This document shows, in pieces, positions 625 to 59,692 of a stretch of 64,000 nucleotides of DNA. The position numbers and the translations under genes are program-made. This DNA is from Methylococcaceae bacterium UBA2780 (GTDB taxonomy: Bacteria; Pseudomonadota; Gammaproteobacteria; Methylococcales; UBA2780). The stretch covers positions 7,573 through 71,572 of the forward strand of contig DEIG01000009.1 of NCBI GenBank assembly GCA_002352345.1, in the 5' to 3' direction. Under the pieces are notes generated by a model, which ran no database searches, was not told the DNA's origin, and worked only from the letters and a program-made list of their open reading frames with translations. Position 1 is the stretch's first letter. Each line of letters starts with the position of its first letter.

Positions 625-1842
625 TTGTCCTACTCGAACCTATCTAAGAATGAGCTAATTGAGCTCCTTGAAATGCGTGATAGTACCCACTCTGAAAGTA
701 CTCGCAGCAGGCCAGCAGAAGAAAAAGTCGCGCACTCAACACTGAACTTATTGCAAGTAGTCCTTAATACGATTGACGAGCCCATTTATATCGTCGACCT
801 GGTAAATGATGAGATTATTTTTGCAAATAAAAAAATTGATGAACTGTTTGGAGATGTTATTGGAGCACGTTGCTGGGAAACACTCCAAAAAGGCCAAGAT
901 GGTCCATGCCATTTCTGTACAAACCACTATCTAGTCGATAAAAATAGCCGGCCAACCGGCGTTTACCGATCAAGATATAAAAATAACTTAACGGAAAGTT
1001 GGTATCAATGCTGTGACAAGGCATTTAAGTGGACAAATGGGCGCATGGTTGCGATAAAAACATCTGTCGATGTAACAGCGATTGTAGAATCAAATCTCTC
1101 GGTAAAAAAATTATTCGAACAGAACAGATCACTCACTCAGAAGGCACTCAATTTACGCGATAAAGAGCGCAAACAGCTATCTTTGGATCTGCATGATGAG
1201 TTAGGCCAGATTGGTACGGCTATCAAGTTAAATGCGGAGTTTCTTCTCGCGCAAGAAAAAGTAAAAACGACAGAGGAAAACAACGCTCTTAAAGATATAG
1301 TCAGCCTTACTAGTGACTTTTTAAAGACGACTCATAATATAAGCAACCGACTAAACCCCCAGACTCTTATCTCAAACTTAACTATCAGTGAATTACTGAG
1401 TGAGCTATTTGAAGAATGGTTACTTAGAAACAGGAAAATAAAAGGTGGAATTAGTTTCAATATAGATCACTGCTTAGACTCTTGCTTGGGCACTAATCAT
1501 AAAGAAATCTTGTTTAGAACCTTACAAGAGGCGCTGACGAATATTTCTCGACACTCAAAAGCAACTCAGGTCACCGTAAGCTGTAACGCTTCAAAAAGAG
1601 ACATGGATAAAGTTGGCTCCCCAAAAGGGGCCACCTACATTTTTAAGATGAAGATTAGTGATGATGGAGTGGGCTTTCCTGAATCCACCGATAGTAGAAA
1701 TTTGGGCCTAACATATATGAATGAAAGAATAACTTCACAAAGAGGCAACCTAAGTACGGGCCGGTCTATTATGGGTGGAGCAGAAGTTCTGATGCAGCTC
1801 CCATGCACGATTCAAAAGGGGCATATAAAAAACAATGGCTAG
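625..1842 (+). CDS. cytoplasmic sensor histidine kinase, NarX/NreB type (HisKA_3) with Cys-cluster PAS-like domain
   Basis: H-box LHDELGQ. HATPase motifs EALTNISRHS and DDGVGF. No TM segment. The N-terminal PAS-like region carries C83-x11-C95-x2-C98 plus C129-C130. The track start is TTG, so the true start is uncertain. Confidence 0.85.
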   Translation: MSYSNLSKNELIELLEMRDSTHSESTRSRPAEEKVAHSTLNLLQVVLNTIDEPIYIVDLVNDEIIFANKKIDELFGDVIGARCWETLQKGQDGPCHFCTNHYLVDKNSRPTGVYRSRYKNNLTESWYQCCDKAFKWTNGRMVAIKTSVDVTAIVESNLSVKKLFEQNRSLTQKALNLRDKERKQLSLDLHDELGQIGTAIKLNAEFLLAQEKVKTTEENNALKDIVSLTSDFLKTTHNISNRLNPQTLISNLTISELLSELFEEWLLRNRKIKGGISFNIDHCLDSCLGTNHKEILFRTLQEALTNISRHSKATQVTVSCNASKRDMDKVGSPKGATYIFKMKISDDGVGFPESTDSRNLGLTYMNERITSQRGNLSTGRSIMGGAEVLMQLPCTIQKGHIKNNG

Positions 1843-2482
1843 CATACTTATTGTTGATGATCATGAGATTGTACGGGCAGGCTTCAAACGTATTTTTGAA
1901 GCAAGTGGGCTGCATGAGGTTATCGGTGAGGCCTCTTCTTCTGAAGAGGGCGTCACCGCCTTTAAAGTCTTATCACCTGATCTTGTTATTATGGATGTCA
2001 TGATGCCTGGAGGAGATATTTCCAGCGCAATCCAACGGATCAAGAACCACGATAAAAACGCCCGTGTTCTAATTGTAACGCTTTATGATCACCCAAGTTT
2101 GGCCGAACGGTGTTTTAAAGTTGGTGCCCGTGGCTTTGTTACAAAGGCGAGTAGCGGCCAAGTTTTAATACAGGCGATAAATGAGCTGTTAAATGGTCAG
2201 CGATTTCTCAGCCCTGACCTCTCTGAAAAAATTGCACTCAATCAATTGGATGGCACCAATCTAAATTCTCTAGAATGCTTAAGCCCGCGAGAACTTGAGG
2301 TCTTTATGCGTATTGCCAGAGGACAGTCTATAGCTGAAATTTCAGACCAGATGCACTTGTCGAAAAAAACAGTATCGAATTACTCAAGCCGAATCAAAAA
2401 ACATTTGAATGTCACTACAACCGCTGAATTTGTGCATCTTGCTATTCAAGAGGGAATTGTTTCCTGTAGTGAACACCAATGA
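1835..2482 (+). CDS. response regulator, NarL/LuxR family
   Basis: REC domain (ILIVDDHEIVR, DLVIMDVMMPG). C-terminal GerE/LuxR HTH (LSPRELEVFMRIARGQSIAEISDQMHLSKKTVSNYSSRIKKHL). Overlaps the kinase gene by 8 nt. Confidence 0.92.
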   Translation: MASILIVDDHEIVRAGFKRIFEASGLHEVIGEASSSEEGVTAFKVLSPDLVIMDVMMPGGDISSAIQRIKNHDKNARVLIVTLYDHPSLAERCFKVGARGFVTKASSGQVLIQAINELLNGQRFLSPDLSEKIALNQLDGTNLNSLECLSPRELEVFMRIARGQSIAEISDQMHLSKKTVSNYSSRIKKHLNVTTTAEFVHLAIQEGIVSCSEHQ

Positions 2483-9417: not shown

Positions 9418-9614
9418 TCCAATCGTCTTTCTAATCAACCAAAAAAACCACCGTTCTCGATGGTTTTTTATTTCCGCCTCTTTACTTGCTCTTTTTCTCG
9501 CGAAAAAAGCAGCCATCAACCATTCAGAGAGGGAATAACTGTTATTTTTTGATTTTCAACTTATTGTTTTTTAATGGAATAACGCAATTATTTATTGCGT
9601 TGCACAAATTATTG

Positions 9615-9643
9615 TTGCATCGCGTCAATTGTCCCCCTATAAT
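9615..9643 (+). promoter_or_regulatory. sigma70-type promoter of phasin paralog 2
   Basis: TTGCAT (9615-9620), 17 nt, TATAAT (9638-9643). The -35 sits inside a 17-nt block (attgttgcatcgcgtca, 9611-9627) that repeats identically upstream of paralog 3. Confidence 0.6.
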
Positions 9644-9695: not shown

Positions 9696-10082
9696 ATGCT
9701 AAAAGAATTCACACCTGTTGATTTCACTAAAGCTTTAGAATCTATGCAGAAAATTGCTGACCTAAACGTTGCTAAAATTGAAGCTGCTGTTGAAGCTCAA
9801 AAAGCTGCTGCTCAGTCTTTAGTTGAACTAACAGAAGCTCGCGTTAAAGCAGCTACTGAAATCAAAGATTACGATGGTTTTGTCTCTTTCGTAAAAGAGC
9901 AATCAGAACTTGCACAGTCTTCTGTTGAAAAATTAGTTGAAGATAGCAAAGTCGCTGTTGAAGATGCACAAGCATACGGCGAAGAAGTTCAGAAAATTTT
10001 AGGCGAAGCAACTGAAGTTCCTGCTGCTAAACCTGCTGCTAAAAAAGCTGCTGCTAAACCTGCTGCTAAAAAAGCTGCTTAA
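9696..10082 (+). CDS. phasin family protein with C-terminal AAKP/AAKK histone-H1-like tail (paralog 2)
   Basis: Phasin core about 70% identical by eye to paralog 3. Tail is VPAAKPAAKKAAAKPAAKKAA. GGAG SD. Confidence 0.85.
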   Translation: MLKEFTPVDFTKALESMQKIADLNVAKIEAAVEAQKAAAQSLVELTEARVKAATEIKDYDGFVSFVKEQSELAQSSVEKLVEDSKVAVEDAQAYGEEVQKILGEATEVPAAKPAAKKAAAKPAAKKAA

Positions 10083-10104
10083 TTCGTTAAGCCTCTTTTT
10101 AAAA

Positions 10105-10137
10105 AGCCCGGTTCACTTTGTGAGCTGGGCTTTTTTT
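10105..10137 (+). terminator. rho-independent terminator after phasin 2
   Basis: 12-bp stem (agcccggttcac / gtgagctgggct, with 2 G-U pairs), ttt loop, then T7. Confidence 0.8.
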
Positions 10138-10178
10138 ATGCCTACCACGCGCAAAAATGACGCAGTGCAAAATAATTG

Positions 10179-10207
10179 TTGCATCGCGTCATTTTGTAAA
10201 GTACTAT
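10179..10207 (+). promoter_or_regulatory. sigma70-type promoter of phasin paralog 3 with overlapping inverted repeat
   Basis: TTGCAT (10179-10184), 17 nt, TACTAT (10202-10207). The inverted repeat TGACGCagTGCAA...TTGCAtcGCGTCA (10158-10191) covers the -35. Confidence 0.6.
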
Positions 10208-10260: not shown

Positions 10261-10605
10261 ATGTTAAACGAAATACCTGCATTTGATTTTCAAAAAGCGC
10301 TTGCACCTTTCCAGAAATTAGTTGAACTAAACGTTTCTAAAATCGAAGCTGCTGTTGAAGCCCAAAAAGCTGCAACTCAAGGCTTGGTTGAACTGACAGA
10401 AGCTCGCGTTAAAGCTGCTTCAGAAATCAAAGATGCTGATTCATTCAGCGCTTTCGTAAAAGAGCAAGCTGAGCTAGCACAGTCTAACGCTTCAAAAATG
10501 ATCGAAGACAGCAAAGTTGCTGCTGAAGAAGCTAAAGCATACGGTGAAGAAGTTCAGAAAATCATCACTGAAAGCATCGAAGAAGCTAAAGCTAACCTGA
10601 AATAA
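10261..10605 (+). CDS. phasin family protein (paralog 3)
   Basis: MLNEIPAFDFQKALAPFQKLVELNVSKIEAAVEAQKAATQGLVELTEARVKAASEIKD...; AGGAG SD. Confidence 0.85.
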   Translation: MLNEIPAFDFQKALAPFQKLVELNVSKIEAAVEAQKAATQGLVELTEARVKAASEIKDADSFSAFVKEQAELAQSNASKMIEDSKVAAEEAKAYGEEVQKIITESIEEAKANLK

Positions 10606-10630
10606 GCCTCTCTTATTTCTAGCTTTAAAT

Positions 10631-10667
10631 AAAAAGCCCCTCCCTAAAAATAGGGAGGGGCTTTTTT
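10631..10667. terminator. bidirectional rho-independent terminator (phasin 3 / TonB receptor)
   Basis: 11-bp GC-rich stem gcccctcccta/tagggaggggc, flanked by an A-run and a T-run, between convergent genes. Confidence 0.85.
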
Positions 10668-18230: not shown

Positions 18231-18732
18231 GCCAAAAGTTGGTGTAAGCAGCTGCCTACTCGGGCATCTGGTTCGTTATGATGGCAGGGAGAAGTTACAC
18301 CCTGCCATCAATCTGCTCTCCTCTCAATTTGAGCTAATAGCCCTATGCCCAGAAGTCGGCGTAGGACTAAGCGTTCCCCGCCCTCCCGTACAACTGGTTA
18401 AGCTAAACAGAGGATTATCTGCGCTGGGTGTCGAGAATCGCGAGATCGATGTAACTGATCTACTCAAAGGCTATCTACAATCACAGCTCCACATCATAAG
18501 CTCACTTTCAGGAATGATCTTAAAAACAAGATCTCCAAGTTGCGGGATTAACACCACCCCTTTATTCGACCTAAATGGAGAAGAAAGTGGCTATGGTTCA
18601 GGTCTATTTGCTGCCGGAATACAACAACAGTTTCCCTCTCTTCCATTAGCTGACGAAGAGATGCTCGAAGAGCAACTTCAGCGCGATACTTTTTTTCAAG
18701 AGGTGCGCCATTATCATGCGAGAAACAGCTAA
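18214..18732 (+). CDS. DUF523 domain protein
   Basis: [18 protein letters not shown]...LKTRSPSCG matches the DUF523 pattern. The track ORF runs back into fba, so I used the in-frame GTG at 18214. Start uncertain. Confidence 0.6.
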
Positions 18733-32529: not shown

Positions 32530-34063
32530 AGGTTACACGGGAAACCCCTTCGATTTCGTTAATAATACGATTCGAAACGAGGCCTAAAAAATCATAGGGG
32601 AGGTGCGCCCATCGAGCCGTCATAAAATCAATTGTCTCCACGGCACGTAACGAAACAACATAGTCATACCGGCGCCCATCGCCCATTACGCCAACTGATT
32701 TAATTGGTAAAAAGACAACAAATGCCTGGCTCGTTTTGTCGTACAGGTTATGTTTATAAAGTTCATCGATAAAAATCTTATCGGCTTTACGCAGCAAGTC
32801 TGCATATTCCTTTTTAACCTCACCAAGAATACGAACACCCAAACCCGGGCCAGGGAATGGGTGGCGATAAACCATATCGCGTGGAAGCCCAAGCTCAACA
32901 CCGAGCTTACGAACCTCATCTTTAAACAGCTCTCTTAGGGGCTCCAACAAATCAAGCTTCATATGATCCGGTAACCCACCAACATTATGATGCGTTTTAA
33001 TCACCTGAGCTTTGCCTGTTTTCGCCGCGGCAGATTCGATCACATCAGGGTAGATCGTCCCCTGCGCCAACCATTTAACGTTGGTGAGTTTATTTGATTC
33101 TTCTTCAAAAACCTCAACAAAAACTCGCCCAATAATACGGCGCTTAGCCTCCGGCTCACTCTCACCAGCCAGCTGATCCAGAAAGCGCTTCTCTGCATCA
33201 ACACGAATCACTTTTAGACCCATGTGCTTAGCAAACATCGCCATCACTTGATCACCTTCATTTTCACGAAGAAGGCCGTTGTCGACAAAAACGCACGTTA
33301 ATTGGTCACCAATCGCTCTATGTAGAAGCGCAGCTACAACTGACGAGTCCACTCCACCCGATAATCCAAGCAAAACCTCATCATCACCCACCTTCTCACG
33401 GACCATAGCAATGCTATCTTCGATAATTTTTGCTGACGTCCATAATGCATCACAACCGCATATCTCTGTCAGAAACCGCTTAATAATTCGTTGACCTTGT
33501 ACGGTGTGCGTCACTTCCGGGTGAAACTGCACACCATAAAAATGGCGCTCTTCATCGGCCATCCCTGCAAATGGTGCACTATCGGTACTCGCTATCACCT
33601 TGAAACCTTCCGGCAGCTCTGCAACTCGGTCGCCATGACTCATCCAAACATCAAGAAGACCATAACCCTCTTCGGTTGTATGGTCTTCTATATCTCGCAA
33701 CAGCTCAGAGTGACCTCGCGCACGAATTTGCGCATAGCCAAACTCGCGATGCGACGAGGATTCAACCTTTCCGCCCAGCTGCATCGCCATAGTCTGCATT
33801 CCATAGCAGATACCTAACACGGGAACACCAAACTCAAATACAGCGTGCGGCACAACAGGAGCTGAATCGCCAATTGTCGAATCAGGCCCACCAGAAAGAA
33901 TAATGCCTTTAGGCGAAAACTCTTTAAGCTCATCCTCACTTATTTCCGGATCTCTCAACTCACAATAAACACCTGCTTCGCGGATACGACGGGCAATTAG
34001 TTGCGTGTATTGCGAACCAAAATCGAGAATAAGGATTCTGTGGTCGTGGATATTGCTACTCAT
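32486..34063 (-). CDS. guaA: glutamine-hydrolyzing GMP synthase
   Basis: [36 protein letters not shown], ...KPPATIEWE. The start was trimmed to the ATG at 34063 (MSSNIHDH...). Confidence 0.95.
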
Positions 34064-56894: not shown

Positions 56895-57488
56895 TTAAAG
56901 AGTGCCTTTTGTGGAGGGCATAATACCCTGCATTGCAGCGTCAGGTGCCGCAGCCACTCTTAACGCCCGACCAAATGCCTTAAAAATAGTCTCTGCAACG
57001 TGATGCGCATTCACACCTTTCAAATTATCGATGTGAATAGTTGCTTTGGCGTGATTAACAAACCCCTGAAAGAATTCCCTGAACAGATCGACATCAAATG
57101 AGCCTATTTGACCGCGCGGAAAAATCACGTTGTATTCAAGCCCAGGCCGCCCCGAAAAATCGATGACAACACGAGACAAGGCCTCATCAAGTGGGACATA
57201 AGCATGACCATAACGCGTCAACCCTTTCTTATCTGCTAGTGCTTCTGAGAAGGCCTGCCCAAGAGCGATACCAATATCTTCTACTGTATGATGATCATCA
57301 ATCTCTAAATCACCCTTAGCAGTCACCTCTAAATCAATCATCCCATGGCGAGCGATCTGATCCATCATGTGATCCAAGAATGGAACTCCGGTTTGAAAAG
57401 ATGATTGACCCGTTCCATCAAGGTTAATACGCACTGTTATCTGAGTTTCTAGCGTATTTCTAACAATCTCTGCGCTTCGTCCAGCCAT
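56895..57488 (-). CDS. hisB: imidazoleglycerol-phosphate dehydratase
   Basis: VRNTLETQI..., [31 protein letters not shown]. The ATG at 57488 is preferred over the track GTG at 57500. Start uncertain. Confidence 0.93.
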
Positions 57489-57600
57489 TTGAATATTCAC
57501 TTAAAGTGTTTAAAAGCAGAATGATAAAGATTTTTGCCCCTGTTTGCACGAATTGAGCTGAATTGACGGCGAAGGTAAAAGCAGTGCCTTCGCCAGAATA

Positions 57601-57618
57601 TGTAGGCGCGCACCTACA
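57601..57618 (+). promoter_or_regulatory. GacA/UvrY-box-like upstream activating palindrome
   Basis: TGTAGG-cgcgca-CCTACA is a perfect 6+6 palindrome with an N6 spacer, and matches the Pseudomonas GacA box TGTAAG-N6-CTTACA at 10/12 positions. TAGAAT -10 at 57662-57667. No -35-like hexamer. Confidence 0.55.
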
Positions 57619-57673
57619 CGCATTGCAGCAGCAACCGACTACCCTGTTTTTCCCAAGGACGTAGAATTATCAA

Positions 57674-57799
57674 CGTCGTCACAGGATAAGGATTTCAAAG
57701 GACCATTCAACAGGACGTTGCCAAGGAAGGAACCATTTAGACCAACCAAGCAAAAGACGACCTTAACCCTGATAAATAAGAATTTATCAGGGTTTTTTT
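57674..57799 (+). ncRNA. Csr/Rsm-family (RsmY/RsmZ/CsrB-like) small RNA candidate
   Basis: About 125 nt and ORF-free. Six AGGA motifs start at 57683, 57689, 57699, 57712, 57724 and 57728. It ends in a 13-bp hairpin (57765-57777 / 57782-57794) plus T7. A GacA-like box is centred about 65 nt upstream of the inferred TSS. The 5' end is approximate. Confidence 0.6.
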
Positions 57800-57818: not shown

Positions 57819-57848
57819 AAAAAAAGGGCTAACCAACAGATCAGCCCC
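57819..57848 (-). terminator. rho-independent terminator after typA
   Basis: Minus strand reads ggggct-ga-tctgttgg-tt-agccc followed by T7. The stem is short, with 5 GC-rich bp plus a bulged extension. Confidence 0.5.
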
Positions 57849-57874
57849 TTTCAATTCACGCCGCCAATATAAAC

Positions 57875-59692
57875 CTATACTGCGCCACGAGCAGCTCTCT
57901 TACGCTCATTCTCCAACAATAGTTTCTTGCGGATACGAATAGAGTCTGGGGTCACCTCGACCAGCTCATCATCATCGATAAATTCTAGCGCCTGCTCTAA
58001 TGTCAGCTTCTGGATAGGGACTAAAACCAAGTTCTCATCCGTACCCGCTGCGCGGATATTTGTCAGCTGCTTGGCCTTAGTTGGATTAACCACGAGATCA
58101 TTTGCTCGCGCATGAAGACCAACGATCATCCCCTCATAAACAGGGTCCGCGTGGACTAATAACAGTTTCCCGCGCTCTTGAAGATTAAACAATGCAAAAG
58201 CCAGTGCTTTACCATTTGCATTAGAAATCAGAACACCATTATTTCTCTGCCCAAGCGCCCCCTCTTTAACAGGTCCATAGTGATCAAATACGTGATAGAT
58301 CAAACCGGAACCCGATGTGGTCGTCATAAATTCAGTCTGGAATCCAATCAAGCCACGCGAAGGCATCATATATTCAAGCCTGACGCGACCACCACCATCA
58401 GGAACCATATTTTTTAGCTCCGCCTTACGCTCACCAAGCTTCTCCATCACCGAACCTTGATGCTCATCCTCCACTTCGATGGTGACAAATTCATACGGCT
58501 CACAAAGCTCACCATGGATCTCTTTAACAATCACTTCCGGACGAGAAACACCCATCTCGAAACCTTCGCGACGCATATTTTCAATCAAAACAGAAAGATG
58601 CAGCTCACCACGCCCAGAAACTTTAAATTTATCAGGATCATCAGTCGGATCAACGCGTAACGCAACGTTATAGCGAAGCTCAAGTTCCAAACGGTCTTTG
58701 ATCTGGCGAGATGTCACATATTTCCCCTCTTTACCTGCAAAAGGAGAGGTATTCACTTGAAACGTCATCGTAATAGTCGGCTCGTCAATCGACAACGGCG
58801 GCAATGCTTCAACACAATCTGGCGAACAAATTGTGTCTGAAATATTCAATGGATCAAGCCCTGAAAAAGCAATAATATCGCCGGCTCTCGCCTCATCCTG
58901 CTCAACTCTCTCCAGCCCCTTAAATCCCATAATCTGGAGAATTCGTCCGCTACGCTCATTGCCATGTCTATCAACAATGGTTAATGCCTTGTTTTTCTTC
59001 AGTACGCCGCGCTGAACACGACCAATACCAATCAAACCAACATAAGAATTGTAATCGAGGCTAGAAACCTGCAACTGCAAATCGCCCTCTACATCAACAT
59101 CCGGCGGACTCACTTCATCGACAATCGCCTGAAACAGTGGCGTCATATCACCATCTCTCGCCTCTTCATCCAGGTTGGCGTAACCATTCAGCGCCGATGC
59201 GTAGATAACAGGGAAATCAAGCTGCTCATCAGTCGCGCCCAAACGATCAAACAGTTCAAAAGTTTGATCAAGAACCCATTCAGGCCTTGCTCCCGGACGA
59301 TCAATTTTATTGATCACAACAACCGGCTTTAATCCCAGCGCAAATGCCTTTGAGGTAACAAAACGGGTCTGTGGCATTGGGCCGTCAACCGCATCAACAA
59401 GCAGAAGAACCGAGTCAACCATTGAAAGTACACGCTCAACTTCTCCACCAAAATCAGCGTGGCCCGGAGTGTCGACAATATTGATGTGGTAGCCATTCCA
59501 ATCAATAGCTGTATTTTTAGCCAAAATGGTAATTCCACGCTCTTTTTCAAGATCATTAGAATCCATCATCCGCTCGGAAGTCGTTTCATGCGCCTCAAAC
59601 GTTCCAGACTGCTGCAGCAACTTGTCCACCAAGGTCGTCTTTCCATGGTCAACGTGGGCAATAATCGCTACATTTCTTAACTTTTCAATCAT
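57875..59692 (-). CDS. typA: translational GTPase TypA/BipA
   Basis: [35 protein letters not shown], 605 aa. Confidence 0.96.

Follow-up and report, generated by a model that had tools for sequence, protein, structure and literature searches.

Five criteria have been proposed for recognizing small RNAs that regulate CsrA: an intergenic position, richness in AGGA or ARGGA motifs, a rho-independent terminator, placement of GGA motifs in loops or free regions of the RNA, and a conserved upstream site (PMC1488887). The consensus of the GacA box is TGTAAG-N6-CTTACA, and in P. aeruginosa the site is positioned at -75 for rsmY and at -196 for rsmZ (PMC4950607). Cycloclasticus sp. P1 contains a GacA-annotated regulator, PahR, as well as csrA (PMC8547461, PMC10570129), and mutants of both PahR and csrA lose the ability to grow on polycyclic aromatic hydrocarbons (PMC8547461). 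In the model published for Cycloclasticus, PahR and CsrA are linked without an sRNA, and none is mentioned (PMC8547461, PMC10570129). A full-text literature search turned up no report of a Csr/Rsm sRNA from either Methylococcales or Cycloclasticus, and for uncultured methanotroph relatives, Methyloglobulus, and Cycloclasticus, neither the annotations nor Rfam contain an RNA of this kind.

The window, which is the whole 64-kb stretch of DNA analyzed here, contains the genes hisB (56895-57488) and typA (57875-59692) on the minus strand. NCBIfam identifies both genes, in agreement with the initial annotation, which had named them as the minus-strand neighbors of an sRNA. Comparison of related sequences makes it almost certain that the spacer between them harbors a real sRNA gene. 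The predicted sRNA, about 126 nucleotides long, occupies positions 57674-57799 of the plus strand, where a near-invariant block coincides with covariance-model matches and no conserved open reading frame is present. Its 5' end has been placed according to the -10 hexamer, and positions 57673-57675 are possible. Gene, strand, and boundaries can be read from the sequence data, as can the conservation of helices and palindrome and the preferential retention of GGA motifs. The palindrome, the -10 hexamer, the GGA block, and the terminator that the initial annotation had described in the spacer were all recovered in place. The approximately 125-nucleotide RNA is likely to be a GacA-type-activated, putative CsrA-sequestering decoy.

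The most likely start of hisB is the ATG at 57488, because the resulting 197-residue protein corresponds to the form in the databases. Therefore, the hisB-typA spacer is 386 nucleotides long, not 374 as had been proposed; the shorter length applies if an upstream GTG is taken as the start of hisB. Short open reading frames of 24-38 codons are present in the spacer, and none of them is conserved among the homologues. The hisB-proximal part of the spacer, 57489-57560, is strongly conserved among relatives, and its minus strand contains a plausible hisB promoter, TGCAAA-N16-TATCAT. At the opposite end of the spacer, an intrinsic terminator of typA (57821-57852, minus strand), which is part of the genomic context and not of the sRNA, is convergent with the plus-strand terminator of the sRNA.

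Eleven distinct homologues of the RNA were identified in uncultured gammaproteobacteria, metagenome-assembled genomes (MAGs) of Methyloglobulus and Methylococcaceae, and Cycloclasticus, with covariance-model scores of 35-140 bits across the 11 lineages. Relatives of HisB with 89-97% sequence identity, traced to their contigs, share the gene order hemC, rhodanese, typA, spacer, hisB throughout. Alignment of the spacers reveals a sharp footprint, in which an almost invariant block extends from CGTCGTCAC to the T-run, and the palindrome, the AACCGACT box, and the -10 hexamer are retained. The intervening and flanking sequences have diverged and contain insertions and deletions, which are also present inside the sRNA block. 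The initial annotation had interpreted the locus as an independent plus-strand transcription unit; the conservation of the four elements as a unit in 11 lineages, with divergence of the flanking spacer, argues for this interpretation. A more distant relative, L093/L094, with 81% identity in HisB, carries a homologue. The relatives P0009 and P0021, with 81-82% identity in HisB, were considered as carriers and rejected: they have a different synteny and no sRNA.

A metagenome scan with the invariant 19-mer ATTCAACAGGACGTTGCCA returned nine loci. Three of them contain new homologues, with the RNAs of L095 and L098 identical to each other and that of L100 distinct; L099 is the contig of L085, and the remaining five loci are chance matches. 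The covariance model R1, built from eight sequences, matched a Methyloglobulus MAG (L002, 59.6 bits), a Methylococcaceae MAG (L003, 56.5 bits), and Cycloclasticus sp. NAT157 (L022, 35.5 bits); the score of the last increased to 56.8 bits with the second-round model R2. The Cycloclasticus homologue is 164 nucleotides long and was located by the covariance model on the minus strand of L022, at positions 1411-1574. Among the matches listed in a HisB search of genome contigs, the relatives had identities of at most 78%, and BLAST detected no similarity in their spacers. Three loci without BLAST similarity in the spacer nevertheless held distant homologues, which were detected only by the covariance model. 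A search with R2 near hisB in 80 other loci yielded no additional homologues. The HisB and TypA proteins of the window are at most about 78-81% identical to their nearest named or MAG relatives, mostly Methylococcales, among the matches listed.

The palindrome TGTAGGCGCGCACCTACA (TGTAGG-N6-CCTACA), which is 18 base pairs long, spans positions 57601-57618 and is a putative GacA/UvrY-type activating site. It had been claimed to be perfect, with a 6-N6-6 organization, and to match the GacA box at 10 of 12 positions; both properties were verified, and there are no other exact copies of the sequence in the 64-kb window. The center of the palindrome lies about 64 nucleotides before the RNA start in the window, and between -62.5 and -64.5 in 11 of the 11 homologues. 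The 11 upstream regions, anchored on the first base of the RNA, were scored against the Pseudomonas consensus TGTAAG-N6-CTTACA, and matched it at 7-12 of the 12 positions. The match is complete in L088, 11/12 in L084, L087, L100, L093, and L022, and 10/12 in the window, L083, and L095. L002 matches at 8/12 positions and L003 at 7/12, the latter having its own perfect 16-bp palindrome. The palindromes of the relatives thus drift toward the canonical GacA box rather than away from it. According to our own arithmetic, the chance expectation for a match of at least 10/12 in DNA of the size of the spacer is approximately 0.014. In the multiple alignment of the 110 nucleotides upstream of the RNA, the invariant columns are the GTA and TAC of the half-sites, one T, and positions of the -10 hexamer. 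The half-sites are oriented with GTA on the outer left and TAC on the outer right, which is the GacA/UvrY arrangement. This orientation is opposite to that of the NarL 7-2-7 arrangement.

Downstream of the palindrome, the -10 hexamer TAGAAT (57662-57667, plus strand) is at a conserved position and has no recognizable -35 counterpart. The homologues contain the variants TACAAT, TATACT, GAGAAT, CAGAAT, CACAAT, and GACAAT at the same position. A two-hexamer sigma-70 scan of the spacer detected no promoter, which fits the absence of a -35 element and agrees with the initial description of this promoter. A conserved box, AACCGACT, is located at 57633-57640 of the plus strand, 21 nucleotides upstream of the -10 hexamer. 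It is not a standard -35 element, because it is too far upstream. The box is invariant in the window, L083, L084, L087, L088, and L100, degenerate in L095 and L093, and absent from L002, L003, and L022. A second regulator could bind to it.

A search of the window for further palindromes and for a paralogous sRNA, as the initial annotation had suggested, produced matches with two mismatches at 18243 and 33321, which corresponds to chance frequency, and no paralogue or second GacA box. The match at 33321 is inside a long open reading frame. The sequence TGTAAGCAGCTGCCTACT at 18243-18260 of the plus strand agrees with the GacA box at 10/12 positions; it lies within the coding sequence for the N-terminal part of a 2-thiouracil desulfurase (DUF523). 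Weak model matches at 10085-10137 and 10538-10667, considered as paralogues, are the terminators of two phasin genes. These genes, at 9696-10082 and 10261-10605 of the plus strand, are tandem paralogues encoding proteins of 128 and 114 residues (Pfam Phasin_2), each with its own intrinsic terminator. A motif of approximately 17 nucleotides, ATTGTTGCATCGCGTCA, precedes each of them (near 9609-9630 and 10174-10193), and could be a PhaR-type operator.

The 64-kb window contains neither csrA nor a response regulator that reaches the GacA cut-off. It includes a two-component pair (625-2482, plus strand) composed of a UhpB/NarX-type histidine kinase of 405 residues and a NarL-family regulator of 215 residues (1835-2482). 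This regulator is the only one of the NarL family in the window, and its best NCBIfam match is UvrY/SirA/GacA, with a score of 176 bits compared with the UvrY/GacA equivalog cut-off of 280. Because of the sub-cut-off score, and since the partner kinase is of the UhpB/NarX type and not a GacS-type hybrid, the regulator is probably not a GacA orthologue. It is possible that it binds the palindrome.

The conserved secondary structure of the RNA consists of three helices. The clamp helix P1 is formed by GUCGUC (57675-57680) pairing with GACGAC (57756-57761). All P1 cells are paired (100%) in 11 sequences, and changes on both sides occur in three of its six pairs. Hairpin H2, CAAC-[AGGAC]-GUUG (57708-57720), predicted by RNAalifold, exposes one GGA in its loop; 97.5-100% of its cells are paired, and L093 contains one compensatory change from A-U to G-C. 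The intrinsic terminator (57765-57799, plus strand) is composed of a hairpin of 13 pairs (57765-57794) followed by seven T residues (57793-57799). The initial annotation had described the same 13-bp hairpin and T7 tract; the plus-strand terminator scan agrees with it, and the stem covaries, with changes on both sides in 10 of 11 pairs across the family. In P1, H2, and the terminator together, 96% of cells are paired. Double changes are found in 14 of the 21 pairs, a count from an alignment fitted to the model, which hence leans toward the structure; an independent MAFFT alignment points in the same direction. None of 500 shuffles reached the observed pairing values, and controls with a slid register were all far lower. 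RNAalifold also proposes a fourth helix, between the tandem GGAAGGA and CCAACC, with zero covariation.

The six GGA motifs announced in the initial annotation, which are putative CsrA-binding cores, are all present and more constrained than their surroundings. They form a cluster at 57684-57731 of the plus strand, distinguished by its conservation and density, with CAGGAU, AAGGAU, AAGGAC, CAGGAC, AAGGAA, and AAGGAA having their first G of GGA at 57684, 57690, 57700, 57713, 57725, and 57729, respectively. All six are within 57674-57763. A seventh motif, AAGGAC at 57655-57660, is upstream of the -10 hexamer and is probably outside the transcript. The cluster has the highest GGA density of the plus strand of the window, seven per 90 nucleotides compared with a mean of 0.73. 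Counting both strands, no more than five regions reach at least six GGA motifs, and comparison with the list of open reading frames places the other four within long ones. In the seven closer sequences, the 18 GGA columns have a mean identity to the window sequence of 98.4%, the other columns of the RNA body 81.8%, and the base directly 5' of each GGA 69%. For the motif at 57725, each of the four nucleotides occurs as the preceding base (AAGGA, AGGGA, ACGGA, and AUGGA). Fixed GGA with a variable preceding base is the pattern expected if A-N-GGA, the core recognized by CsrA/RsmE, is the selected unit.

The initial annotation had proposed folding of the RNA as a check on whether the GGA motifs are in loops, and the outcome is mixed: one of the six is in the conserved loop of H2, and the others, situated in a stretch without a conserved helix, are ambiguous. 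Single-sequence partition-function folding gives the GGA motifs of the window RNA unpaired probabilities of 0.34-0.61, which is no higher than the mean of 0.55 for the body of the RNA, and the homologues do not share the internal pairings of the minimum-energy structure. The RNAs of the window clade contain five to six GGA motifs, and those of L002 (Methyloglobulus) and L003 (Methylococcaceae) two to three. The Cycloclasticus RNA has seven, with unpaired probabilities of 0.65-1.0, and three of them are in clean hairpin loops.

The best-conserved element of the family, Cycloclasticus included, is the signature box GACCAACCAAGC (the CCAACCAAGC box; G/ACCAACCAAGC) at 57740-57751 of the plus strand, which is invariant or nearly so in all homologues. 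It contains no GGA, and its sole predicted pairing is that with the tandem GGAAGGA, which is without covariation support. The invariant CCAACCAAGC box may serve in base-pairing with mRNAs, in the control of turnover, or in an internal switch hiding two GGA sites; to our knowledge, Rsm RNAs do not have such roles. The strict conservation of the box even in the most distant members, together with the decrease to two or three GGA motifs in L002 and L003, would suit a base-pairing, probably Hfq-dependent trans-acting sRNA with the CCAACCAAGC box as its seed and the GGA motifs of secondary importance or restricted to a side function. The NarL-family protein binding the palindrome would then not have to be GacA, and the window encodes a NarL-family regulator that resembles UvrY/GacA best while scoring below the cut-off. 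We consider this alternative unlikely. Conservation singles out the GGA motifs and leaves the adjacent base free to vary, the palindrome has the orientation and spacing of a GacA box with a 12/12 match in L088, and a search for the complement of the CCAACCAAGC box within the window found matches at chance level only. Base-pairing and sequestration of CsrA are not mutually exclusive.

The RNA is directly downstream of typA and convergent with it in 11 of the 11 lineages. Its unfailing association with the typA 3' end, as well as the location of the palindrome in the window, some 95 bp ahead of the start inferred for hisB, could be explained by a noncoding transcript or a DNA element that serves its neighbors and has no role in the Csr system, for example by insulating or terminating transcription at typA, or by regulating hisB divergently or as an antisense RNA. 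However, typA has its own terminator, and a function as an insulator would account for neither the conserved clamp helix and hairpin nor the pattern of GGA motifs. In Cycloclasticus L022, a gene encoding 619 residues separates the sRNA from hisB, which is 2.4 kb away, yet the spacing between the palindrome and the sRNA is unchanged. Therefore, the palindrome belongs to the promoter of the sRNA and not to that of hisB, and we regard a neighbor-serving element as very improbable. Least credible of all, with hardly any chance of being correct, are the readings as a gene for a small protein or as motifs that came together by chance: the 24-38-residue reading frames of the spacer have no counterpart conserved in position or length among the homologues, in which the longest frames are 0-45 residues long and in differing places, insertions and deletions fall within the block, covariation supports RNA helices, and conservation in 11 lineages excludes a chance assembly.

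The preferred reading is that of a CsrA-sequestering decoy, and the initial proposal of a putative Rsm/Csr-type sRNA with a GacA-box promoter withstood each of the computational tests applied. We infer the activator, the binding of CsrA, and the physiological output as follows. A phosphorylated GacA/UvrY-type regulator of the NarL family would bind as a dimer to the palindrome about 64 bp upstream and recruit RNA polymerase to a promoter lacking a -35 element but equipped with a good -10 hexamer. The 6-bp helix would clamp together the 5' and 3' ends of the transcript, which would end at the strong terminator. Within the clamp, a hairpin loop would display one GGA, and A-rich RNA with little structure would carry another four to five. 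The GGA sites would bind CsrA dimers, with two GGA motifs per dimer and thus up to three dimers, so that the translational regulator CsrA/RsmA would be drawn off its mRNA targets.

In Methylococcales in the broad sense, in which we include Cycloclasticus, the control of degradation of polycyclic aromatic hydrocarbons by GacA-like and CsrA regulators is already known, and a decoy RNA has not been described. We tentatively propose, as a possibility with the odds against it, that the typA-linked RNA is the missing sRNA of the Gac/Csr cascade in methanotroph-related and hydrocarbon-degrading Gammaproteobacteria, and that it perhaps has a dual function. The homologue in a Cycloclasticus MAG, with an 11/12 GacA box, suggests that a canonical sRNA link between PahR and CsrA may have been overlooked. 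The locus provides a candidate sRNA output of the Gac/Csr switch, with coordinates, for a poorly studied branch of gammaproteobacteria, and the covariance models R1 and R2 can be used for annotating the family. The advance is incremental, a useful annotation rather than a new principle.

The initial annotation had noted that the primary sequence of the RNA is unlike that of described families, and in line with this, scans of the window and seven homologous loci with Rfam 15 at the gathering score gave no match in the spacer. Permissive Rfam scans returned noise driven by the terminator (pntA, SdsR, L10 leader, and Xoo2) and a weak RsmZ signal. Of the Csr/Rsm-type families in Rfam, PrrB_RsmZ (RF00166) alone appears, with 13 bits in the window and 20.5 bits (E = 0.005 in a 211-nucleotide search) in Cycloclasticus. 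Since these scores do not reach the gathering score of 44, the sRNA is not a member of RF00166. The scan for Csr/Rsm families that had been recommended therefore recovered RsmZ weakly and below threshold; the models of RsmY, RsmX, CsrB, CsrC, and other Csr/Rsm RNAs were not listed even at E values of up to 10 in small-region scans.

CsrB and CsrC are 250-420 nucleotides long and contain 9-22 GGA sites, and the LetA box of Legionella differs in sequence. CsrB and CsrC of Enterobacteriaceae and Vibrio, as well as RsmY and RsmZ of Legionella, would be analogous to the RNA described here in that a BarA/UvrY-type system controls a CsrA-titrating sRNA recognized by the same criteria (PMC1488887); they differ from it in that none of their models matches it. 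Judged by the criteria of Kulkarni et al. 2006 (PMC1488887), the candidate is intergenic, GGA-rich, and followed by a terminator, and it has a conserved GacA/UvrY-type upstream site, with 10/12 matches in the window and 7-12/12 in 11 homologues at a fixed position. The placement of GGA motifs in loops is partial in the window and clear in the Cycloclasticus homologue, where they are 0.65-1.0 unpaired.

The PrrB/RsmZ model aligns with the RNA over its full length (positions 1-133), and the GGA loops of the Cycloclasticus homologue align with loops of the model. By contrast, the scores are sub-threshold, and the site of P. aeruginosa rsmZ is at -196 (PMC4950607). The RsmY and RsmX RNAs of Pseudomonas are similar in organization: they are also products of intergenic stand-alone genes, approximately 110-125 nucleotides long, with an 18-bp palindrome of the TGTAAG-N6-CTTACA type near the promoter, a -10 hexamer without a good -35 element, several A-N-GGA motifs, and a strong terminator. 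The palindrome at about -64 is nearer to the rsmY site at -75 than to that of rsmZ at -196 (PMC4950607). Unlike RsmY and RsmX, to which it has no detectable sequence or covariance-model similarity at E values of up to 10, the RNA described here is downstream of typA, has a single GGA in a conserved hairpin loop, and adds the invariant CCAACCAAGC box and the AACCGACT promoter box. It looks like a new sequence family of RsmY/CsrB-type decoy RNAs. Judging from its sequence, the best reading is that it would function as RsmY or RsmX do, from outside the described sequence families.
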